A DNA stretch of 32,000 bases. Origin: Coprobacillaceae bacterium. Lineage in GTDB: Bacteria > Bacillota_I > Bacilli_A > Erysipelotrichales > Coprobacillaceae. This document shows, piece by piece, positions 11,043-22,132 of the stretch. The stretch covers positions 1,740,001 to 1,772,000 of the forward strand of contig OY780959.1 in the NCBI GenBank assembly GCA_963675915.1. Direction: 5' to 3'. Numbering within the stretch: the first letter of the stretch is position 1; each line of letters opens with the position of its first letter. Both the position numbers and the translations under genes were made by a program. Below the pieces are notes generated by a model. The model was not told where the DNA came from and ran no database searches. It saw only the letters and a program-made list of their open reading frames with translations.

Positions 11043-11867
11043 ATGAACCAATTAGTTTATGAGAAAATTTCACGAATGCCCCAACAATTTGTAAGAATTC
11101 TATATTTCAATCATGAACAGAATCCTAAACAGGTCCCCAAACACTGGCATCGTTCAATCGAATTGATTTATCCTAGACAAGGTTATATGCATCTTTGGGA
11201 TAATGGGGAATCCTACAAAGTTGAAGCCGGTGATTTCCATGTGATCAATTCACAAGCAATCCACGCCTGCAATCGCGGCAGTCTTGACTATGATGGTTTC
11301 GCCATCCAAATAGATATAACTTTTATCAAAATACTCTACCCGCAAATAGAGTTGATTGCTTTTTCCAATGAACATACACCCGAACTAAAGCACGATATCC
11401 TGACGATTCTTGATAAAATGGTCTCTGTCAAGCCAAGCGAAACCAGCGAAATCGAAATCAATGGCTATGCTACTGTTTTGATCAGCAAGCTTCTATCCGG
11501 GACAACCACCAAAAACAGCGGCATTGAACTGCAAAACAACCAATATTCCCAATTGATCATGGAGATAATGGCTTTTATCGACGCTAACTACTATGAGAAA
11601 CTTTCGTCACGGGAAATCGCGGACAAATACAACCTGTCATATGGATACCTGGCTAGAATTTTCAAAGACACAACTGGAATGACATTGAGCCAGTACATCA
11701 AAAATCAACGACTCGAGAACGCCATCAATGACCTTAGATTCAGTTCGCTGAACATTACCCAGATTGCTTTGAAAAATGGATTTAGCGATTATAAGTCTTT
11801 TGACAAAATGTTTAAAGAACGTTATAAGATGAAACCATCAGCCTATAAAGAAAAAATTGGAAGTTAA
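11043..11867 (+). CDS. AraC/XylS-family transcriptional regulator (N-terminal cupin sensor plus C-terminal double HTH)
   Basis: The N-terminus has HWHRSIELIY...GDFHVINSQAIH (AraC-type cupin). The C-terminus has SSREIADKYNLSYGYLARIFK...ITQIALKNGFSDYKSFDKMFKERYKMKPSAY (HTH_18/AraC signature). GGAAGGAG RBS. Confidence 0.9.
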   Translation: MNQLVYEKISRMPQQFVRILYFNHEQNPKQVPKHWHRSIELIYPRQGYMHLWDNGESYKVEAGDFHVINSQAIHACNRGSLDYDGFAIQIDITFIKILYPQIELIAFSNEHTPELKHDILTILDKMVSVKPSETSEIEINGYATVLISKLLSGTTTKNSGIELQNNQYSQLIMEIMAFIDANYYEKLSSREIADKYNLSYGYLARIFKDTTGMTLSQYIKNQRLENAINDLRFSSLNITQIALKNGFSDYKSFDKMFKERYKMKPSAYKEKIGS

Positions 11868-12019: not shown

Positions 12020-13273
12020 ATGACTTACCATAACAATTCAAAAATCATTTTAAACGGAACCTATCAGATGCATGTAGGCGCCTATGACTGGGGGACTGGG
12101 ACTGACCGGATTATCATCATATTTGACGGTGAAATTTCTACCATATCGAAAGAGAATCTCACAATCACTGAGACAAAACAGACAACAATCTGGGATGGGG
12201 AGGATTTTCCCATCGAAATAACTTCCAGTCAACGCATTATCGAAGCAGCTTATCTTTGCGACATTGACGGGAACCGAACTCAGCAGCCTAGCTGTCGGGT
12301 ATTGGTCAAATTGAAAGTCAGCCCTACTGAAGGATCGCCGTTTTTGTTTTCGATGAAAACATCGAAAAACTCCTGGTCTGATCCCTATCACCTGGAAATT
12401 CAACTTGCCCAGGGAGCTGTAATCATGCAAGGTGAAAACATCATCAAATCCCTGGCAATCCCGAAGATTGCGACTAAAATCACTACCGCTGGCGAAATTT
12501 TCAAACCTGGACATTTCAAAACTCCAGCAGGAGCCACATACGATTATGTCGCTTTCGAACCCGATGTTAACTTTGACACCCTGGTTGTCTGGCTTCATGG
12601 CCTAGGCGAGGGCGAAATTGAAGGATCAGATCCCTACTTCCCAATACTGGGGAATAAGGCGGTTGCCCTGGGTGGCAGCGAATTCCAACGCATCGTCGGA
12701 CCAGCGGCAATCCTGGCACCGCAATGCCCGACAATGTGGATGGATGACGGGAGCAAAAAGGAAACGGCAGATGGTTCAAGCAAATACACCAAAAGCCTCT
12801 TCTTACTGATTGACCATTACAAACAAAAAGTCCAGGCGACTAAAATTGTCTTGGCCGGATGTTCCAATGGTGGCTACATGTCACTGGAACTGTTAAGGAA
12901 TTATCCGAACTACTTTACTTGCACCGTACCTGTGTGTGCTGCAATGGAGAGTAACTGGATCAGCAATGACGAAATTGACAATATCAAACATCAACCCTTG
13001 TTTTTCATTTACTCAAACGATGATCCGCTTGTAATACCCGACCAGTACGAAGCCCCGATAATCGGCCGCCTGCAAGAAGCAGGAGCTTCCAAACTCACAG
13101 TATTCACTACCGACAAGGTGATTGACACTACTGATAAATATCATGATTCCACTGGCGCTCCATATCGATACAATGGCCATTGGTCTTGGATCTATTTCCA
13201 TAACAATACCGCCATTGATCCCCGAACCGGTCTGGACGTCTGGTCGTGGATTGCTGCTCAGGTAAATTCATAG
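12020..13273 (+). CDS. Two-domain alpha/beta-hydrolase (serine esterase), paralogue 1, no signal peptide (predicted cytoplasmic)
   Basis: N-terminal ~190-aa module (GAYDWGTG...YLCDIDGN...VSPTEGSPF), then a hydrolase core: VVWLHGLGEG, nucleophile elbow GCSNGG, SNDDP (Asp) and NGHWSW (His). AAGGGGA RBS. By eye it is roughly 45% identical to the two downstream paralogues and begins exactly where their mature domains begin. Confidence 0.75.
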   Translation: MTYHNNSKIILNGTYQMHVGAYDWGTGTDRIIIIFDGEISTISKENLTITETKQTTIWDGEDFPIEITSSQRIIEAAYLCDIDGNRTQQPSCRVLVKLKVSPTEGSPFLFSMKTSKNSWSDPYHLEIQLAQGAVIMQGENIIKSLAIPKIATKITTAGEIFKPGHFKTPAGATYDYVAFEPDVNFDTLVVWLHGLGEGEIEGSDPYFPILGNKAVALGGSEFQRIVGPAAILAPQCPTMWMDDGSKKETADGSSKYTKSLFLLIDHYKQKVQATKIVLAGCSNGGYMSLELLRNYPNYFTCTVPVCAAMESNWISNDEIDNIKHQPLFFIYSNDDPLVIPDQYEAPIIGRLQEAGASKLTVFTTDKVIDTTDKYHDSTGAPYRYNGHWSWIYFHNNTAIDPRTGLDVWSWIAAQVNS

Positions 13274-13474: not shown

Positions 13475-14779
13475 ATGAAAAAATCAAGATTGATTTTATC
13501 AAGTTTTTTAGCCCTGGGACTCGTGGCTTGTTCAAGCAGCGATACTGGAAGCGATACTATTACCGGAACTTACAGTTACATGGTAACCGGTTACGACTGG
13601 GGAGCTGGTGTAAACAAAGCGGTACTGGCACTAGATTACAAAATCAGTGAAATATCAGCTGATGATTTGGCCGTAATGGAGACAAAATCAGCAACTGACT
13701 GGACTGATCCTAATTTCGAAGTAAAAGTAACTGACTTCGATAGAGAAGTTACCGATATCTATTTATGTGACGCTGATGGAAATCCAGTCGACGGAGACAG
13801 TGAATACGTGGCGGTAGAATTGTATGTCAGCCCTAATGACGGTAACCCGATCAACTATTCAATGACTACATCAAGAAATACTTGGTCTGATCCATATACC
13901 CTGACTTTCACTTTGACTGACACAGCTGAAGTTGACTCTTTAGGTGAGGCTGTAACTTCATTTACAATCGATGCTGATGCTACTGGATACACAACTTCGG
14001 CTGATATGTTTGAAGCTGCGACATTTGAAGCCACCGATGGAATTACTTATGATTATGTGACTTACGAACCGGCAGAAAAATCAGATACTTTGGTTGTTTG
14101 GTTACACGGTGCTGGTGAAGGATATGCAGATGGAACAGATCCATATATTCCGGTTTTGGCAAACAAAGTAACTGCTTTAGCTGGGGAAGAATTCCAAAGC
14201 ACAATTGGCAGTGCAGCTATCTTGGCGCCACAATCACCTACTATGTGGATGGATGACGGTACCGGAGGATACACTTCAGACAATTCAAGCATGTATACTG
14301 AAAGTCTGATGGAACTGATCGACAGTTATAAAACCGAGTACGGAGCTACTCAAGTTGTTGTAGCCGGATGTTCTAATGGTGGATTCATGACTATGGATAT
14401 GTTGATTAACTATCCTGATTACTTCGTAGCCGGAGTACCTATCTGTCAAGCAAAAACCGATGCATTGATTACAGATGATCAAATCGCCGCACTTAAAGAC
14501 CAAGCAATCTTCTTTATCTACTCTGAAGATGATCCAACTGTAATCCCTGGAAATACTTCAATTCCGACAATTTCAAGACTTCAAGCTGCTGGAGCCCAAA
14601 ACATTATGGTTTACTCACCTGAACATGTAATCGACACTTCAGGTATGTATACTGACGCTGATGGAAATCCATACCAATACAACGGTCACTGGTCTTGGAT
14701 CTATTTTGACAACAATGATGCTGTAGATGATGTCACTGGTCAAGATTCATGGTCTTGGATTGCTGAACAATTAGATTAA
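13475..14779 (+). CDS. Lipoprotein, two-domain alpha/beta-hydrolase (serine esterase), paralogue 2
   Basis: MKKSRLILSSFLALGLVAC|SS is a signal peptide with lipobox L-V-A-C. The hydrolase core has VVWLHGAGEG, GCSNGG, SEDDP and NGHWSW. AGGAGGAG RBS. Confidence 0.85.
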   Translation: MKKSRLILSSFLALGLVACSSSDTGSDTITGTYSYMVTGYDWGAGVNKAVLALDYKISEISADDLAVMETKSATDWTDPNFEVKVTDFDREVTDIYLCDADGNPVDGDSEYVAVELYVSPNDGNPINYSMTTSRNTWSDPYTLTFTLTDTAEVDSLGEAVTSFTIDADATGYTTSADMFEAATFEATDGITYDYVTYEPAEKSDTLVVWLHGAGEGYADGTDPYIPVLANKVTALAGEEFQSTIGSAAILAPQSPTMWMDDGTGGYTSDNSSMYTESLMELIDSYKTEYGATQVVVAGCSNGGFMTMDMLINYPDYFVAGVPICQAKTDALITDDQIAALKDQAIFFIYSEDDPTVIPGNTSIPTISRLQAAGAQNIMVYSPEHVIDTSGMYTDADGNPYQYNGHWSWIYFDNNDAVDDVTGQDSWSWIAEQLD

Positions 14780-15008: not shown

Positions 15009-16316
15009 ATGAAAAAATCAAGATTGATTTTATCAAGTTTTTTAGCACTTGGACTTGTTGCCTGTTCAAGCAATGAGACCGGGAGCGACACCATCACCGG
15101 TACCTACAGTTACTACGTTGGTGGTTATGACTGGGGAGCTGGAGTTGACAAAGCCGTTTTGAGTCTGGATTATAAAATCAGCGAAATTTCCGCTGATGAT
15201 CTCGACGTAATGGAAACCAAAGAACAAACTGATTGGAGTGATCCTGAGTTTGCCGTTAAAGTTGTTGATGTCGACCGCACCGTTACTGATATTTATTTAT
15301 GTGATGCTGACGGTAATCCGGTTGACAGTGACAGTGAATACGTAGCAGTTGAACTGTATGTCAGCCCTGATGATGGTAACCCGATCAATTATTCGATGGT
15401 TACGTCAACCAACACTTGGTCAAGTCCTTATACTTTGACTTTCACATTGACAGATACTGCCGCAGTTGACTCACTCGGTGAAGCAGTAACTTCATTTACG
15501 ATTGATGCAGAAGCGACTGGATACACTACCGCTGCTGATATGTTTGCAGTATCGACTTACGATGCCCAAGACGGTACTTCATATAATGTTGCCACATACG
15601 AACCTGCAGAACAGGCTGATACCCTATTTGTCTGGTTGCATGGTGGTGGTGAAGGACAAGCTGACGCTTCAGATGCCTATGTGCCACTATTGGCCAACAA
15701 AGCAACTGTATTTGCCAGCGAAGAATTCCAAACTGAAATCGGTGGTGCGGCAATTCTGGTTCCTCAATCACCAACTATGTGGATGGATGGTACCGGGAAC
15801 CGAGAACGAGTTGAAGATGATTCATCAGTCTACACTGAAAGTCTAATGGAACTGATCGACAGTTACAAAACAGAATACGGAGCTACTCAAGTTGTTGTAG
15901 CCGGATGTTCTAATGGTGGATTCATGACATTGGATCTGATGATGAATTACCCTGACTACTTCACTGCAGGTGTCCCTATCTGTGAAGGTAAATTGGATGA
16001 AAAAATCACTGATGCTCAAATCGACATCTTAAAAGACCAAGCTATGTTCTTCATCTATGCAGAAAATGATACTACTTTGACACCAGAAATCTATTCAGTA
16101 CCTACCCTTGAAAGATTGAATGCCGCTGGAGCTTCAAATCTGATGGTATTCAGTCCTGAGAATGTAATTGATACTTCAGGTATGTATACTGATGCTGATG
16201 GAAATCCACATCAATATTCAGGTCACTGGTCTTGGATTTACTTCTACAACAATGAGGCTATGGATGACACTACTGGTCAAACAGCATGGTCTTGGATTGC
16301 TGATCAATTAGACTAA
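15009..16316 (+). CDS. Lipoprotein, two-domain alpha/beta-hydrolase (serine esterase), paralogue 3
   Basis: Signal peptide and lipobox identical to paralogue 2 (MKKSRLILSSFLALGLVAC). GCSNGG nucleophile elbow, AENDT and SGHWSW. By eye it is roughly 75% identical to paralogue 2. Confidence 0.85.
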   Translation: MKKSRLILSSFLALGLVACSSNETGSDTITGTYSYYVGGYDWGAGVDKAVLSLDYKISEISADDLDVMETKEQTDWSDPEFAVKVVDVDRTVTDIYLCDADGNPVDSDSEYVAVELYVSPDDGNPINYSMVTSTNTWSSPYTLTFTLTDTAAVDSLGEAVTSFTIDAEATGYTTAADMFAVSTYDAQDGTSYNVATYEPAEQADTLFVWLHGGGEGQADASDAYVPLLANKATVFASEEFQTEIGGAAILVPQSPTMWMDGTGNRERVEDDSSVYTESLMELIDSYKTEYGATQVVVAGCSNGGFMTLDLMMNYPDYFTAGVPICEGKLDEKITDAQIDILKDQAMFFIYAENDTTLTPEIYSVPTLERLNAAGASNLMVFSPENVIDTSGMYTDADGNPHQYSGHWSWIYFYNNEAMDDTTGQTAWSWIADQLD

Positions 16317-16378: not shown

Positions 16379-16404
16379 CATCTCAAATTTTTGACAAAGA
16401 AAAA

Positions 16405-16425
16405 GACAACTAGTAACTAGTTGTC
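16405..16425. promoter_or_regulatory. Perfect 21-bp palindrome GACAACTAGT-A-ACTAGTTGTC, candidate dimeric-regulator operator
   Basis: 10-bp perfect arms around a single central base. Centred about 26 bp upstream of the -35 box at 16441. A 1-nt loop makes an RNA hairpin unlikely, so a DNA-binding site is the more natural reading. Confidence 0.4.
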
Positions 16426-16440
16426 CCAAGAACGAATAGG

Positions 16441-16469
16441 TTGAAAATCAACCTTGTACCAATTATTAT
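16441..16469 (+). promoter_or_regulatory. Sigma-A-like promoter TTGAAA-17 bp-TATTAT in a gene-free convergent spacer
   Basis: -35 TTGAAA at 16441-16446, an exact 17-nt spacer, and -10 TATTAT at 16464-16469. No annotated plus-strand gene lies downstream. A terminator sits ~200 nt downstream at 16646-16676. Confidence 0.4.
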
Positions 16470-16576
16470 GCAGTACAGAAATTTTCCTTAACTATAAAAG
16501 CCAATCCCCATCAACTTTCCATAGATACTACATATATAATTCCCGAGCAAAAATTTAGCCCCAACTAAATTTAGTA

Positions 16577-16624
16577 ATGTGGTTTGGTATTATTATTACC
16601 ACATCACCTATTATTATTCTATAG
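16577..16624 (+). CDS. Hypothetical 15-codon hydrophobic small ORF (MWFGIIITTSPIIIL)
   Basis: ATG 16577 to TAG 16622-16624. It lies between the promoter at 16441 and the terminator at 16646. No recognisable Shine-Dalgarno. The ATG is part of a 7-bp stem (ATGTGGT 16577-16583 / ACCACAT 16598-16604). Coding status is unproven. Confidence 0.2.
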   Translation: MWFGIIITTSPIIIL

Positions 16625-16645
16625 TAATAATCAACTAAATTCAAC

Positions 16646-16676
16646 CTGTCACGGTCAATGTGACAAGTTTTTTCGT
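16646..16676 (+). terminator. Intrinsic-terminator-like hairpin plus T6 on the plus strand
   Basis: TGTCAC-ggtcaat-GTGACA (6-bp stem), then AG and TTTTTT. It is plus-strand specific, because the minus-strand reading has no trailing U-run. Confidence 0.45.
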
Positions 16677-16733: not shown

Positions 16734-18173
16734 TCACAAATATAGATTCATCAACTGTTTCAAAACTATGATTGTGTCATCTTTTGAAAACGCCAAACCA
16801 TCGTCACGCAGCGAGTCGATAAAATCGCAGAACTGTTTTCCGATTTCGGCATCATCGATATAAAAAGCGAAATTCTTGTCATTTTTTTTGAAGTCCGCCG
16901 CAAAAGAAATAATCACGCCGTCTGTTTGTGAGGGAATAATCAATAGTTCCTTAGGAAATGTAATGACATCAGAGTTGACCAGCACCAATTCATAGACACC
17001 CCGCTTGATGTCCTCAATCATCCGATTGATTATCTCGCGCCGGTCAACCGGACTGAAAATCACATCGCCAAATGGCGGCATGGAAATATTTATCCCGTTT
17101 TTGATAAATTCGATGAAGCCCTCAATAGTGCTCGCAACATGATATGATTTTTTTTTGACATCGGTTCCCAGGAATCCTGCCATATGATTGACCGAATTTT
17201 CCACATCATTGCTGTCTCGCACATAGTACTTTTCAAGCATTTCCCGGGTCAGATAATTATTGATATAAATACCCGGTTCCACGGAATAGACTGTATCAAC
17301 AGCAAAAAGCTTCTTGTATATCTGCTCATATTTCCCATTTTCTTCAAAACTATATATCAATGGCTTGAAAAGGTCAACACTGCGGTCAAACTTTTTAGCA
17401 AAAAGTTCAACCTGACTATCTCCGGATATCAAAAGTCCATTGCCCATATCATCACTGAAAATAAAGATCTTGTCGTTGACTATCATATAGTTGCTGAAAT
17501 CTCCGGCTGACAATTTCACTATTTCATTATTATAGTAGCAGCTGTATTGGCATTTTGATGATATTACCAAAGGAATCAAATACATCAGAATATTCATTGC
17601 ACTATCCCCGCTTTTTAGCGAATTCAAGGTGGTCAGATGATTAATTTGAAGATTAACGTCATAACACGAATAAAGCTCATAGAAATACGCCAACAGGAAT
17701 TCATCTTTTATATCATAAGCCAATTTGATTTTGGTTCTTTCATCATTGCACAGTGACCACGCAATAACTCTTTTCATCGCCATAATCAAAGCAATCCGAC
17801 TATCATATTGGTATATACCTTCAAAATAGGCTCCTTTACTGATAGCCGTACTTTCACAAAAATAACGATCTTCCCTGATTGAATCATAGTCAATTGTGAT
17901 CTGATCGATAAACTCTCTGATTTTGGCTCTAAATCCATATTCATCTTCACCGGTGAGATAAATATCGAAAAGCTTTTCAAACTCTTTTTCTTCCATAAAA
18001 TTGAGCTGAAGCAGACCGACCAGATTTTCAAAATCCTTGGGAGTTATTTTGATTGTCTTATCATAGATAAGTCCCAGTTCCAGCTTACTGACACCAAGGC
18101 ACTTGGCCAAATCAGCGGAAGAAACATTGCTTCTTTCAACCAAATCCTGAAGCTTATTTACAAACCTTGACAT
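16734..18173 (-). CDS. XRE-type HTH protein with a large uncharacterised C-terminal region (paralogue C, 479 aa)
   Basis: N-terminal SSADLAKCLGVSKLELGLIYDK is a helix-turn-helix. A linker helix EEKEFEKLFDIYL follows. The block YMIVNDKIFIFSDDMGNGLLISGDSQVELFAKKF is shared with the two upstream genes and reappears in degenerate form near the C-terminus (VLVNSDVITFPKE...FAFYIDDAEIGKQFCDF). AAAGGAGA RBS and an ATG lying inside the last 20 nt of the upstream gene. Confidence 0.8.
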   Translation of the reverse strand: MSRFVNKLQDLVERSNVSSADLAKCLGVSKLELGLIYDKTIKITPKDFENLVGLLQLNFMEEKEFEKLFDIYLTGEDEYGFRAKIREFIDQITIDYDSIREDRYFCESTAISKGAYFEGIYQYDSRIALIMAMKRVIAWSLCNDERTKIKLAYDIKDEFLLAYFYELYSCYDVNLQINHLTTLNSLKSGDSAMNILMYLIPLVISSKCQYSCYYNNEIVKLSAGDFSNYMIVNDKIFIFSDDMGNGLLISGDSQVELFAKKFDRSVDLFKPLIYSFEENGKYEQIYKKLFAVDTVYSVEPGIYINNYLTREMLEKYYVRDSNDVENSVNHMAGFLGTDVKKKSYHVASTIEGFIEFIKNGINISMPPFGDVIFSPVDRREIINRMIEDIKRGVYELVLVNSDVITFPKELLIIPSQTDGVIISFAADFKKNDKNFAFYIDDAEIGKQFCDFIDSLRDDGLAFSKDDTIIVLKQLMNLYL

Positions 18174-19080
18174 ATATATCTCCTTTACCGAAATACTCCT
18201 TCAGATCGTTTTGAAACTGGGTATCCAAGTGAATCAGACAGTTGCCCTTGGCAATATAATAATTGCTTTCATCACTCACAAAACTGGCTTCCGGTGAGAT
18301 ATCCATTTCATTGACAAATCCTTTTCCGCGATGTTGAACCCGAAAATACTGGTTTGCCCGATCAAGCCTTTTAAAAAAAACATTTTTAAAAAATTCAATT
18401 CTTTTAGGATTAGTGGTATATCCCAAATTATTCATCTCGTTATCATACATCAGCAGCTTATCATCAACCAGGACATAGTTGTCATAGACAGATAAATTGA
18501 TGGTCGGATCTACCGTATAATAACCTTGGTAGTTTTCGTTTTTCAAATAAGCCGCCAGCATTGAGTTCAGGTAATTGGTCTTTTTTTCAGTAGAGTTGAT
18601 GTTCTTGATTTGAATGATATTTTCACCGTTTGCCGGAAGATATGATTCCACATCCGAGGATTCTTCATTCAAGATCAAAATCCGTTGTTGGCATCCGGAA
18701 ATTTCCCCAAACACTATCTTTCTGATCTCATCGCGATCGTTGAACATCTTATAATCCAATCGTGGTTCCAACTGTTCCGGCAATCCTGTGGGCACTTGGT
18801 CAAAGTTATTGACTTGGTCGATAAACTTTTGAATCCGCAGGTTCACATGATAGATGTGGCTATATTCCCTGTTGGAGAGATAGGCCCTAATCAATTTATT
18901 CTTTTCTTCTTCATCAAAACAATCCACCGCAATAAGACAGTCGAACTTGGTCTGGTTCATTTCCGTCTCGCCATTGATTACTTTATGGAGCAGCGACCTT
19001 GAAATTCCTGATTCCCGGCTCAATTTTGATATCGAGGCACCGCTATTGGCAATAGTTGATTTCAAAACTTCAGCAAACAT
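18154..19080 (-). CDS. XRE-type HTH protein with an uncharacterised C-terminal domain (paralogue B, ~308 aa)
   Basis: HTH is ISKLSRESGISRSLLHKVINGE, linker EEKNKLIRAYLSN, shared block YVLVDDKLLMYDNEMNNLGYTTNPKRIEFFKNVFFKRL. The preferred start is ATG 19080, 5 nt after AGGAAGAG. The track uses GTG 19086. Confidence 0.8.
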   Translation of the reverse strand: MFAEVLKSTIANSGASISKLSRESGISRSLLHKVINGETEMNQTKFDCLIAVDCFDEEEKNKLIRAYLSNREYSHIYHVNLRIQKFIDQVNNFDQVPTGLPEQLEPRLDYKMFNDRDEIRKIVFGEISGCQQRILILNEESSDVESYLPANGENIIQIKNINSTEKKTNYLNSMLAAYLKNENYQGYYTVDPTINLSVYDNYVLVDDKLLMYDNEMNNLGYTTNPKRIEFFKNVFFKRLDRANQYFRVQHRGKGFVNEMDISPEASFVSDESNYYIAKGNCLIHLDTQFQNDLKEYFGKGDIYVKVCK

Positions 19081-19091
19081 ATTCACTCTTC

Positions 19092-20252
19092 CTATTCTTT
19101 TATCTGTAAATTGATGGTACTGTTGTGGGCAAAGTCCAATACATGGTTGACAAAAGTCGTATTTTTGACCACATAATATTCCCGGCTTCGCTTTCCGAAT
19201 GAAAACACCACACCCTCTTCACTCACAAAAACATAAGTGTTTTTTTCAATTTCAAGACCTACAGGAACATTTTTTTGGCGATTATCACCATTATGCTCAA
19301 ACAAGTGGTAATCCATGTCTTTCTTGATATTATAAACCGGGCAGTTTTCCAATCCCGGCAAGTCCGGTACTTGGTGAGGACTATCAGTAAAGATATACTG
19401 ATAGTGATAATCCGGAAATTTACTTTTCAGGGTAATCAGATTTTTTGAGGACATCCTGTGCACACTCGTGACTTTCTTGTAATACCTGATTAACTCCAGA
19501 TCGTGTTCAATCCTCATGCACTTGAAGTCCCGGGAAATAAACAATGCCTTATCGTTTAAAATGACATAGTAGGGAAAAATATTGAAATCACTTTCCAGCA
19601 GGAAAGCATCGAAATAATAACTGTGATATTTTTCTTTGCCAAAATATTTCAGGGTGATGATACTGTCAATGATATTGATCGAATTGAATTCCTCATTGAT
19701 CATGCTATCCTCGATATTAACCGGCACAATGTGGTTGATATTATAGTGATTTTTCAAATCAAAAACCAACTCGATAAAGAAAAAACGCAGTACTTTGTCC
19801 TTCATCGGCAGGTTGAGCGTGATATTGATTTCCCGGTCATCTTTACACCCCGATCTAATCGCCCGGATTATAGTGGTAACTACATTTAATTTCCCGAAAA
19901 CAATCTTGTTTTCGATTGAAATATTTTCAATCGGGGAGACAACTATTTGATTATGCCTGATTTTGGATAATTCAGTGATATTATTGAACATCCGGTCAAT
20001 CAAAGCGAAATTATCTAATTGGGTCTTCGACAGATTCCGACGCAAAAATGAAACTTTGAGGATCTCCTTCTGTCTTTTTGACAGACTGAGATATTCCATC
20101 AATGTTTCCAACTCCTGAAATGTCAGGTTACGCTGGCCACTCAGGCAGCGATTCAACTTGGTTCTTGAGATTCCGACATCAGCAGCAATCTTGGTCTGCG
20201 TGATTCCAGAATCATCAACAATTTGATTCAACAAGGTAGTAAATTTATTCAT
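19092..20252 (-). CDS. XRE-type HTH protein with an uncharacterised C-terminal domain (paralogue A, 386 aa)
   Basis: HTH is TQTKIAADVGISRTKLNRCLSGQR, linker KRQKEILKVSFLRR, shared block YYVILNDKALFISRDFKCMRIEHDLELIRYYKKV. GGAGA RBS 7 nt before ATG 20252. Confidence 0.8.
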   Translation of the reverse strand: MNKFTTLLNQIVDDSGITQTKIAADVGISRTKLNRCLSGQRNLTFQELETLMEYLSLSKRQKEILKVSFLRRNLSKTQLDNFALIDRMFNNITELSKIRHNQIVVSPIENISIENKIVFGKLNVVTTIIRAIRSGCKDDREINITLNLPMKDKVLRFFFIELVFDLKNHYNINHIVPVNIEDSMINEEFNSINIIDSIITLKYFGKEKYHSYYFDAFLLESDFNIFPYYVILNDKALFISRDFKCMRIEHDLELIRYYKKVTSVHRMSSKNLITLKSKFPDYHYQYIFTDSPHQVPDLPGLENCPVYNIKKDMDYHLFEHNGDNRQKNVPVGLEIEKNTYVFVSEEGVVFSFGKRSREYYVVKNTTFVNHVLDFAHNSTINLQIKE

Positions 20253-20284: not shown

Positions 20285-20313
20285 ATTTTACTAATTCTAA
20301 CCCTGACTTTCAA
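20285..20313 (-). promoter_or_regulatory. Sigma-A-like promoter of the three-gene HTH operon (TTGAAA-17 bp-TAAAAT on the minus strand)
   Basis: -35 at 20313-20308 and -10 at 20290-20285 with a 17-nt spacer. This leaves a ~25-nt leader before ATG 20252. Confidence 0.5.
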
Positions 20314-20320
20314 CCGTTAC

Positions 20321-20347
20321 AGTCAAATTCCTGTCATTAACATGTCA
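20321..20347. repeat. Three helically phased direct repeats (A/T)GTCA spaced 11 bp apart in the divergent control region
   Basis: GTCA at 20322, 20333 and 20344 (aGTCAaattccTGTCAttaacaTGTCAgaag). An inverted TGACT sits at 20304-20308, and TGTCAC recurs as the -35 of the opposing promoter (20399-20404). Confidence 0.4.
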
Positions 20348-20397
20348 GAAGTTTGAATTCCGGCTAATTCGCATATCTGCGACATTTTCAATTCCAT

Positions 20398-20427
20398 TTG
20401 TCACCAATATTGAAAATATGGTAGAAT
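20398..20427 (+). promoter_or_regulatory. Sigma-A promoter of the TPR gene: TTGTCA, 18-nt spacer, extended -10 TGgTAGAAT
   Basis: -35 at 20398-20403, TG at 20419-20420, -10 TAGAAT at 20422-20427. The track's ATG at 20426 overlaps this -10, which argues for the downstream start at 20450. Confidence 0.55.
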
Positions 20428-20449
20428 GTTAGTAAGAGAGGTGCTGCTT

Positions 20450-22132
20450 ATGGATGATATGCTGAAAAAAATCGAATATCTTGAAAATCAGCCGATGACC
20501 GATGAAACGGCCGGTGAATTGATAATTATGTACGAAGACCTCCTGCTGTCAAATAAACTGACCAAGGAAGGACAAATATTTTTTTCAATTAAATACGCCT
20601 CACTTTTGAATGCCTTTGAAGCGTACGAGGAAGCATACGAAGCTTTGGTCCATCTTGACTTAAGCGCCTTGCCCCTATCTGACAAAGCCTACATCAACAG
20701 TTTGCTTGGGAGTCTGTCATTAAAACTTAATTTTGAACAGCACTGCGAACAGTATCTGGCTGAAGGAGCCCGCGCCTACCATCAGCTTATTGAAGAGAAC
20801 GATATTTATACCTCGATGTACGCCAACGCCCTGTTGAACCTGGCCAACTATTATCATAACAAGAAAATGCATAGCCCGTTCACCGAAACCCTGGATTCCC
20901 TGAATCTCATCGATCCAATTTTACTCAAGCCAATCCAGATTCATGAGATCTGCTTCAATAATATCATTCAGGCTAACGAGATGATCAACCACGAAAAATT
21001 CAAAGAAGCCAAAGAAGCCCTTGAATATAGTGAGTTGTATCTTGACTTATTTGAATCCAAGCATAGTCGTTACTACTATCTGTATTCAGCAATCCATTAT
21101 CAGCAAAAGACCCGTTTGTTATCTAAGACCAACCTGATTACTGAGGCGATTGTCGCTGCTGAGAAGTCGGTTTCCTGTCGGATCAAGGTCTATGAAATTG
21201 ATGAAGAGAGCCAGGAAAGCCTGTCGCATTTGACCGACAGTTATCTGGCCCTGGCCACCTTGCAGCGAAACGCCAACGAGAACAAGGGTCTGATCAACTC
21301 TTTGGAAGAATCAATCAAATATCTGTTGAAATCATATCAGCCTGACGACTATCAGCTGGCACCAATCTACTTGACCTTGTGCGAGGCCCTGAGCAATGAG
21401 GACGAACACTTAAAAGTAATCGGTTCAGGATTGCAGGCTTTGGCCGCATTTGACAATTACCCCGAATCCGAAGCATATAACGATCAGTGGTTTTATGATC
21501 GGGCGATTGTCAACCGCTTGATTTCAATATCCCATCTGGGGCTGAAAAATTATCAAAGCGCCCTCGATTACAGCCTGGACGCCCTTGAAAACCTGACCCA
21601 ACTCACCAATTTGGACAGCCGCCATCACTTTATTTTGGGTAGCCAGCATTTGGTGATCGGCGAAGCGAATTATTATCTGGGCAATTTCGAAAAATCACTA
21701 CATTACCTCGATGAGGCAATTCGCCAATATGACATAATCAAAATTGTCAGTTTCCAATACATGCCGTTGATCCGGCTAAAATGTCAAAACTACCTGGCCT
21801 TGAAACAGTATCCCGAAGCCCGGATTTGCCTGGAACGGCTCAGCCAAATCCTGGAAACCGCCCCCCAGAACGACCAGGAATATCTTTGGGAGGAACAGGT
21901 TAAAACCAATAAACTCTACACGAAATATTATCAGCAACAGCAGGAATTCGACAAAGCTATCGAATACTGCCTGATAGCCCTGGATTTCAGTCGAATGCTT
22001 CAGAACATCGATGAAAGTTATCTCGAGCTAGTTCTGGTTGTTTATCAGGAACTGGCCTTTCTTTATCACGAAAACGATGATGCCAGATATCACGACATCC
22101 AGGATTTGATTGTTCAGTTAACAGAACAATAA
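20450..22132 (+). CDS. Stand-alone tetratricopeptide-repeat (TPR-like) protein, ~560 aa, no other recognisable domain
   Basis: The composition looks all-helical, with repeated TPR-like units such as LGSQHLVIGEANYYLGNFEKSLHYLDEAIRQY, YANALLNLANYYHNKKMH and LYTKYYQQQQEFDKAIEYCLIAL. There is no Walker A, no HTH, no signal peptide and no TM segment. ATG 20450 is preceded by AGAGAGGTG. Confidence 0.75.
   Translation: MDDMLKKIEYLENQPMTDETAGELIIMYEDLLLSNKLTKEGQIFFSIKYASLLNAFEAYEEAYEALVHLDLSALPLSDKAYINSLLGSLSLKLNFEQHCEQYLAEGARAYHQLIEENDIYTSMYANALLNLANYYHNKKMHSPFTETLDSLNLIDPILLKPIQIHEICFNNIIQANEMINHEKFKEAKEALEYSELYLDLFESKHSRYYYLYSAIHYQQKTRLLSKTNLITEAIVAAEKSVSCRIKVYEIDEESQESLSHLTDSYLALATLQRNANENKGLINSLEESIKYLLKSYQPDDYQLAPIYLTLCEALSNEDEHLKVIGSGLQALAAFDNYPESEAYNDQWFYDRAIVNRLISISHLGLKNYQSALDYSLDALENLTQLTNLDSRHHFILGSQHLVIGEANYYLGNFEKSLHYLDEAIRQYDIIKIVSFQYMPLIRLKCQNYLALKQYPEARICLERLSQILETAPQNDQEYLWEEQVKTNKLYTKYYQQQQEFDKAIEYCLIALDFSRMLQNIDESYLELVLVVYQELAFLYHENDDARYHDIQDLIVQLTEQ

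Follow-up and report, generated by a model that had tools for sequence, protein, structure and literature searches.

In Bacillus subtilis, the paralogous XRE-type regulators SinR, SlrR and SinI, some of which are truncated, form mixed oligomers and alter each other's DNA binding. In TrmB, the sugar effector binds at the interface between a phospholipase D (PLD)-like subdomain and a second subdomain (PMC4158304). Here we analyzed a 32,000-nucleotide stretch from a Coprobacillaceae bacterium (GCA_963675915.1, contig OY780959.1, positions 1,740,001 to 1,772,000 of the forward strand; hereafter the window). It contains three consecutive minus-strand genes, A, B and C, and a divergent gene, T. Our analysis indicated that the products of A, B and C belong to one family, in which an XRE-type helix-turn-helix (HTH) is followed by regions that are predicted to be PLD-like. 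It is somewhat probable that the three proteins are TrmB-like sensory regulators of the one-component type, responsive to a ligand and acting as a set. The unusual feature of the locus is a clade-restricted operon of three paralogues among one-component regulators with a PLD-like effector domain.

The three proteins are homologous past the HTH. In BLASTP, A and C align over residues 1-242, and the alignment of B with C extends over residues ~1-270. When hhalign was run on ortholog profiles that lacked the first 75 residues, A aligned with C over 264 columns (probability 90%, E 1.5e-6). For B without its HTH, the alignments with A and C are limited to a motif block pointed out in an initial annotation of this DNA (E 0.003 and 0.017, respectively). 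A family hidden Markov model (HMM) was also built from 92 distant members only, and is independent of the trio. Its match to C spans positions 1-484 (E 5e-75), that to A positions 1-311 (E 3e-54) and that to B positions 1-294 (E 3.5e-28). When the HTH is cut off, the family HMM still matches A (E 1e-30, positions 80-311) and B (E 1e-11, positions 180-313). The initial annotation had proposed homology beyond the HTH from short peptide motifs; all the peptides it quoted are present in the open reading frame (ORF) translations, and the homology itself is now supported by the profile comparisons.

The family is large. An exhaustive search of 1.84 billion representatives with a joint profile identified 1078 representative proteins, each standing for a cluster, at E<=1e-3 and 343 at E<=1e-10. 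They come mostly from Lachnospiraceae-type gut bacteria. Nearly all are 470-510 residues long and align over the full profile. Given this norm and the HMM coverage, C is an ordinary full-length member, and A and B are shortened, partial members. Word-indexed searches of 5.8e9 proteins returned orthologues only, and the impression of a tiny family that they gave is wrong in view of the exhaustive result. Where the sources give family members a name, it is 'hypothetical protein [Lachnospiraceae bacterium]' or 'helix-turn-helix transcriptional regulator [Blautia sp.]'. Against Pfam, NCBIfam, PADLOC and PHROGs, the four proteins of the locus, T included, gave HTH-level or faint TPR matches only. 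Across 93 family members, the Pfam models HTH_31, HTH_26 and HTH_3 (PF01381) match 53-55 at E<=0.01, and Pfam and NCBIfam recognize nothing besides the HTH. A sequence-profile search of the PDB found HTH proteins only, SinR among them. Literature searches on PLD-like XRE regulators and on DUF5753 returned nothing relevant, and the libraries and papers searched hold no account of an XRE-type HTH fused to tandem dead PLD domains, an absence that does not prove novelty.

The fold of the region after the HTH was predicted for C. With a 93-sequence family alignment, AlphaFold gave a model with a mean pLDDT of 89.8 and a pTM of 0.89. A shallow alignment of seven sequences gave a pLDDT of 42 and no usable model outside the HTH. 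The model consists of a five-helix HTH, two linker helices kinked at the near-invariant G75, and two alpha/beta domains with parallel secondary-structure patterns. In a Foldseek search of the PDB, the top match is TrmBL2 (5box, E 5e-5), aligned over ~300 columns that cover the DNA-binding domain, the helix and domain 1. The TrmB effector domain (2f5t) is also matched. Two-domain PLD enzymes align over 450-500 columns at E ~1e-4 (phosphatidylserine synthase PssA, 3hsi/8yr5, E 7e-5), and PPK1 is found as well. Matches to single-domain PLD nucleases include NucT, Nuc, Zucchini and BJ-TSA-9 (TM-score 0.45-0.60, normalized on the target). In a viral structure library, proteins with two PLD domains are matched at E 6e-7. 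According to the model, C carries two tandem domains of the phospholipase D/nuclease fold, each showing the alpha/beta sandwich typical of it. This agrees with the earlier view that the C-terminal parts are mixed alpha/beta and not TPR.

Family-conserved residues in this region are H179, N192, Y210, Y213, Y214, Y216, P227-Y-Y, S240, D242, G352, G360, R378, E441 and D450. The catalytic HxK(x)4D(x)6GSxN (HKD) motif is absent in both domains across the 93 members, and neither domain has a conserved His/Lys pair. At the hairpin equivalent to HKD, the family has F-P-Y...S-x-D, which is F226-S-N228...S240-x-D242 in C. No Pfam PLDc match was found in A, B, C or the 93 members. The PLD-like domains are therefore predicted to be catalytically dead, as in TrmB-type regulators. 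The opposite view would be that they are active nucleases or phosphodiesterases, and that the block is a defence, toxin-antitoxin or mobile-element module under the control of its own HTH. PLD-fold nucleases are indeed among the structural matches of C, including the NgoAVII R-protein beside Nuc, NucT and Zucchini, and the block is fast-evolving with a slightly lower content of guanine plus cytosine (GC). Besides the missing HxK...D, several observations speak against such a module. PADLOC matches are confined to the HTH, namely that of A (PDC-M69A and control proteins, E 1e-4 to 7e-3), with none for B, C or T. Plasmid and phage searches with T and with a typical family member found no homologues. 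The window is otherwise ordinary chromosomal metabolism, and the block occupies a syntenic chromosomal site between housekeeping genes, with no integrase or transposase. We regard active enzymes as highly improbable.

The model also gives a structural meaning to the motif block of the initial annotation, described there as 'hhhhNDKhhhhS.D ... F..K'. In the model of C, this block covers strands 228-232, 235-239 and 246-250 and the helix 252-268. The spacing of the motif, together with strands 228-232 and 235-239, leads us to infer that it occupies the strand-turn-strand that bears HKD in PLD enzymes. The degenerate second copy that had been noticed near the C-terminus falls on the domain 2 equivalent (strands 410-415, 419-424 and 435-439, helix 442-454). 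This copy is backed by the second PLD-like domain of the model; as a sequence repeat it is not significant, with hhalign between domains 1 and 2 giving E 0.038. The best local alignment is nonetheless in the correct register.

The three proteins differ in which parts of this architecture they keep. C retains both PLD-like domains. In A, domain 1 is followed by a remnant of ~80 residues, and most of domain 2 is lost. The remnant in A orthologues (L001 and L003, see below) weakly matches HMM positions 427-461 (independent E-value 7e-4), which correspond to the last hairpin and helix of domain 2. B, the shortest of the three, has the second half of domain 1 only.

The state of the HTH follows a different order. 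An N-terminal HTH had been assigned to each of the three genes by eye, and all three assignments stand, on evidence of different kinds. A passes the Pfam cut-offs with both HTH_31 (PF13560, 27.2 bits, cut-off 27) and HTH_26 (PF13443, 26 bits, cut-off 22), and is the only one of the three to do so. B remains below threshold (14.9 bits, E 0.03). C has no significant Pfam HTH match, and its HTH is recognized in the model, where five helices (2-14, 19-26, 30-37, 45-55 and 59-74) have pLDDT >92 and superimpose on 434 Cro (2cro, TM-score 0.63) and C.AhdI (1y7y, TM-score 0.68); Foldseek also retrieved C.BclI. Near-invariant HTH positions in the family are R30, G39 and R41. A retains all three, and B retains R30 and G39 with R41 lost. 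C and its orthologues have K30, K/E39 and I41, and the window C has K30, K39 and I41. Judged by these residues, the HTH of C has drifted from the family consensus at three near-invariant positions. The parts are lost in a complementary pattern, in which the sensor domains show the reverse of the HTH.

The genes are tightly arranged. The mechanical ORF of B runs from a GTG (18154-19086, 310 aa). The true start is the ATG at 19080, as indicated by the AGGAAGAG Shine-Dalgarno sequence 5 nt upstream, by orthologues starting MFGEV... and by a database copy (P0007) of 308 aa. The AGGAAGAG sequence overlaps the TAG stop of A. The ATG of C lies 20 nt within B, and AAAGGAGA stands directly 5' of it. 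Orthologous loci have 19 nt between A and B and an overlap of 20-38 nt between B and C, so the coupling, already described in the initial annotation, is conserved. Upstream of A, the -35 and extended -10 boxes of the sigma-A-type promoter are invariant in the four lineages compared (window, L001, L003 and L005), which supports by sequence conservation the promoter first proposed there. A, B and C are thus translationally coupled and probably transcribed from one conserved promoter. The trio had been called much more AT-rich than its surroundings. Its GC content is lower, 37.8% compared with 41.4% in the remaining window; this is a modest dip, and 'much more' was an overstatement.

A survey of gene neighborhoods, as proposed in the initial annotation for the co-occurrence of the trio and the TPR gene, showed that the four-gene block, with T divergent from A-B-C, is syntenic in four Erysipelotrichales lineages. 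They are the window; a lineage of two Logan contigs (L001 and L002) that correspond to a locus in an Erysipelotrichaceae metagenome-assembled genome (MAG; L004); an ENA contig (L003); and a Coprobacillaceae MAG chromosome (L005). In all of them the block lies between an M29 aminopeptidase gene and esterase lipoprotein genes. Species-representative genomes searched with gene C patterns yielded only the 44%-identical Erysipelotrichaceae and Coprobacillaceae MAGs. B orthologues are 37-39% identical. Among the three closer lineages, the ratio of nonsynonymous to synonymous substitution rates (dN/dS) lies at 0.06-0.15 in the trio and at 0.03-0.09 in T, values that are approximate since dS is near saturation. 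When the window is compared with the others, the four genes have a dN of 0.48-0.63, and the neighboring M29 gene has 0.16. The low dN/dS indicates purifying selection and, with the high dN relative to the M29 gene, shows that the genes are functional yet fast-evolving.

These data bear on the possibility that A and B are decaying, functionless remnants of tandem duplications of a C-like gene, and that only C works. In its favor, A and B fall short of the usual family length and have lost internal parts, and frameshifted or decayed members are common in other genomes. However, both frames are intact and of similar length (A 376-386 aa, B 308-314 aa) in four lineages whose synonymous sites are saturated, with dN/dS at 0.07-0.15. 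Their ribosome-binding sites and coupling are conserved, and A has the best-preserved HTH of the trio. Decay of A and B is very improbable.

Outside this clade, the family looks different. A search with a narrower family alignment yielded seven related loci. Distant members in their own loci are nearly all single copies beside unrelated neighbors, and one locus (L009) has a tandem pair, with a frameshifted first copy and an intact second member directly downstream. This agrees with the earlier impression that a tandem trio is unusual. Other short family hits are frameshifted genes or contig ends. Many of the short members in metagenome assemblies are full-length genes interrupted by a frameshift, as in L009 (1122-4107, 407+99 aa), L011 (5965-7436, 367+112 aa), L023 (6986-8283, 376+79 aa) and L024 (6998-8352, 317+139 aa). 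Because members elsewhere are single copies and the short hits are frameshifts or contig ends, stable truncated paralogues in one operon appear, from the sequences compared, to be specific to this Erysipelotrichales clade. Neighbors of the distant single-copy members include riboflavin genes, EpsG/EPS glycosyltransferases, a DHHW-MBOAT-DHHW arrangement, an FHA/VWA/PP2C/Ser-Thr-kinase cluster and zinc-ribbon membrane proteins. The members in L011, L020, L021 and L022 adjoin cell-envelope or signalling clusters, with no consistent theme.

How would such a set work? Paired PLD domains make up a single cleft. In a full-length member, the PLD-like domains probably associate into a pseudo-dimer, and residues conserved in the family would line the cleft that separates them. 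Binding of a small ligand or a partner in this cleft would then control the HTH. This proposal follows from the pairing of PLD-fold proteins into one cleft and from the binding of the TrmB effector at a subdomain interface. A and B are unable to build such a cleft alone, so they would pair with themselves or with C. In this scheme, A would be the main DNA binder, C the sensor, and B an adaptor or antagonist. The regulators would be likely to target the promoter of their own operon and gene T, and possibly also the neighboring small RNA (sRNA) candidate described below. That A, B and C physically form hetero-oligomers is a tentative proposal, less probable than their acting as a set. A more far-reaching version is unlikely to hold as a whole. 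In it, the trio would be an obligate mixed-subunit regulator, in which the intact tandem sensor of C complements the half-sensors of A and B, much as single-domain PLD proteins join into one cleft, and DNA binding (A) and sensing (C) are split over co-translated paralogues. The TPR protein and the sRNA would be further parts of one fast-evolving module, and the parent family would represent a bacterial counterpart of TrmB that is widespread and so far undescribed.

Several observations weigh against a joint function. XRE regulators usually act as homodimers. K30 is a basic residue at the start of the recognition helix, so C may still bind DNA. A comparison of the T-A intergenic region between orthologous loci found no conserved palindrome or operator. 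The B orthologues of the other lineages go undetected by the family HMM once the HTH is removed, which marks B as the most eroded copy. Finally, A, B and C each score better against distant Lachnospiraceae-type members than against their operon partners, and could be three independent regulators that share an operon. The paralogy claimed initially therefore stands as membership in one family, and fails as close mutual duplication. The same scores suggest that the trio is ancient or assembled, with no recent triplication.

In the alternative reading, A, B and C are independent homodimeric regulators on a shared transcript, each with its own operator and signal and without physical interaction. 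In its favor, the three are as far from one another as from the rest of the family, members normally occur singly and must then work by themselves, and an HTH-like N-terminus is kept in all three. But A and B lack the complete second PLD-like domain that all full-length members have. Stable truncated forms are not seen elsewhere, the short hits in other taxa being frameshifts or contig ends. The tight translational coupling is conserved in four lineages, and the HTH of C has drifted at three near-invariant positions. On balance, independent action appears rather unlikely, and we prefer the reading of A, B and C as a set.

Gene T was found solely beside the trio. Its mechanical ORF (20426-22132) begins inside its own -10 box. 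The likely start is the ATG at 20450 (M9), as the 559-aa orthologues align from window residue 9, an AAGAGAG ribosome-binding site is present, and the position of the promoter fits. An inverted repeat, ATTTTCAAT/ATTGAAAAT (20376-20392 and 20409-20425, 16 nt apart), brackets the -35 box of the T promoter and is specific to the window. The stretch between the two promoters is not conserved in the orthologous loci. This includes the repeats at 20321-20347, suggested earlier as a binding site, and we do not retain them.

A TPR-like protein without an HTH that occurs only beside the trio raises the question of an RRNPP-like peptide-signalling module. In such a module, T would be a receptor acting on A, B and C as Rap acts on response regulators. 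In NCBIfam, the AimR model overlaps the HTH in A and in B. However, these matches cover residues 8-72 only and reach 22-27 bits, with a cut-off of 70. In their C-terminal parts, the three trio proteins are alpha/beta and not TPR, which separates them from the RRNPP proteins Rgg, PlcR, AimR, Rap and NprR. T matches no PDB sequence and no Rap, NprR or PlcR model. No conserved small ORF for a secreted peptide was found in the flanking intergenic regions, and the stretch 3' of C behaves as RNA. Peptide signalling of this type is quite improbable.

The 418-nt stretch 3' of C is 55-61% identical between the window and the other lineages, compared with 39-46% for the T-A intergenic region. Within it, long invariant sequence blocks are shared by four lineages. 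RNAalifold predicted five helices with 50 pairs. Of the cells in these helices, 96.4% are paired, versus 90.6+/-1.0% in shuffled and 38-51% in slid-register controls. In the four sequences, 11 pairs show compensatory changes, versus 3.4+/-1.5 in shuffled and 0-4 in slid-register controls. We propose the conserved stretch as a candidate sRNA of ~215 nt. Every trio locus has one copy. No Rfam family matched it credibly, in either gathering or E-value mode. A coding explanation for the stretch was rejected; ATG-led frames, checked by eye, differ in length and frame between lineages. The palindrome at 16405-16425, which the initial annotation had offered as an operator, is instead the terminator hairpin at the end of this conserved structured RNA, with a T-run and compensatory changes. 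A second, imperfect palindrome just past the stop of C could be a weak operon terminator or a binding site for a regulator.

Elsewhere in the window, three tandem paralogous esterase or alpha/beta-hydrolase genes are encoded on the plus strand (12020-13273, 13475-14779 and 15009-16316). The latter two have a lipoprotein-type signal (MKKSRLILSSFLALGLVACSS) at the start and an EstA Ig-like N-terminal domain. A gene for an AraC/cupin regulator is found upstream of the esterases (11043-11867). The coordinates of the features of the block are given in Table 1.

Table 1. Features of the T/A-B-C block and of the adjacent RNA candidate, in window positions.
Feature	Position	Strand	Description	Evidence
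Gene T	20450-22132	plus	Divergent TPR-like protein, ~560 aa, without HTH	Faint TPR matches
T promoter-like site	20398-20427	plus	TTGTCA-18-TAGAAT with upstream TG	-10 region conserved in orthologues
A-B-C operon promoter	20285-20313	minus	Sigma-A-type, TTGAAA-17-TAAAAT	Consensus scan
Gene A	19092-20252	minus	386 aa; canonical XRE-HTH, helical linker, complete PLD-like domain 1 (predicted), domain 2 remnant of ~80 aa at C-terminus	ORF
Gene B	18154-19080	minus	308 aa; XRE-HTH minus R41, linker, second half of PLD-like domain 1 only (predicted)	ORF and junction sequence
Gene C	16734-18173	minus	479 aa; full-length family member	ORF
Gene C HTH	18173-18000 (aa 1-58)	minus		AlphaFold model
Gene C linker helices	17999-17877 (aa 59-99)	minus		AlphaFold model
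Gene C PLD-like domain 1	17861-17340 (~aa 105-278)	minus		AlphaFold model
Gene C PLD-like domain 2	17339-16737 (aa 279-479)	minus		AlphaFold model
Imperfect palindrome/hairpin	16643-16669	minus	TGTCAC-N7-GTGACA; just past C stop, abuts -35 box of the sRNA promoter-like site	Both arms conserved across lineages
sRNA promoter-like site	16644-16616	minus	TTGAAT-17-TAGAAT	Conserved
Candidate structured sRNA	16394-16609	minus	~215 nt	Conserved blocks, RNAalifold, covariation
sRNA terminator hairpin	16427-16403	minus	Hairpin followed by T-run	Compensatory changes

This work provides a predicted fold and a testable working model for a regulator family of >1000 sequence clusters in gut Firmicutes, hitherto recorded as 'helix-turn-helix' or 'hypothetical' in Pfam and NCBIfam. 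The trio is a natural experiment that could show how paralogous regulators split DNA binding from sensing. The neighboring conserved RNA adds an sRNA candidate without an Rfam family.

Among described systems, the XRE-DUF5753 proteins (Scr1/WhiJ-type), to which the initial annotation had compared the trio, share an N-terminal XRE HTH of the HTH_31 type followed by an uncharacterized domain of ~200 residues. This comparison was by sequence only. PF19054 (DUF5753) has no match in A, B or C at E<=1 or in the 93 members at E<=0.01, and the predicted PLD/nuclease-like fold and TrmB-like layout lead away from that comparison. Compared with SinR, SlrR and SinI, the oligomerization domain is unrelated, a small helical hook in SinR and a PLD-like region here. 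The partners of SinR are not encoded as a coupled trio within a single operon, and the interaction proposed for A, B and C is inferred. PssA (3hsi/8yr5) and the C1-C2 domains of PPK1 (2o8r) carry tandem PLD-fold domains in one chain, as C is predicted to do. In contrast to these enzymes, the proteins studied here begin with a fused HTH and have other residues in place of the catalytic His and Lys (F-P-Y across the family and F-S-N in C). The global TM-score is only ~0.23, which indicates a different domain arrangement.

The closest likeness in layout is to TrmB and TrmBL2 (5box, 5bpd, 2f5t), which have the same order of an N-terminal DNA-binding domain, a helical connector and a PLD-like alpha/beta effector domain. 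The DNA-binding domain is of the XRE/Cro type here, whereas TrmB has a winged helix (PF01978). The second subdomain is a beta-barrel in TrmB and, in our model, another PLD-like domain here. The hosts are bacterial (gut Firmicutes), whereas TrmB is archaeal. PF01978 and PF11495 both fail to match the trio (E<=1) and the 93 members (E<=0.01). The family would resemble TrmB and TrmBL2 in its way of working and is not a member of the TrmB family; the likeness is limited to fold and architecture. The design of a DNA-binding domain joined to a dead PLD effector, known from archaeal TrmB, would then also exist in bacteria, with another DNA-binding head and a duplicated sensor.

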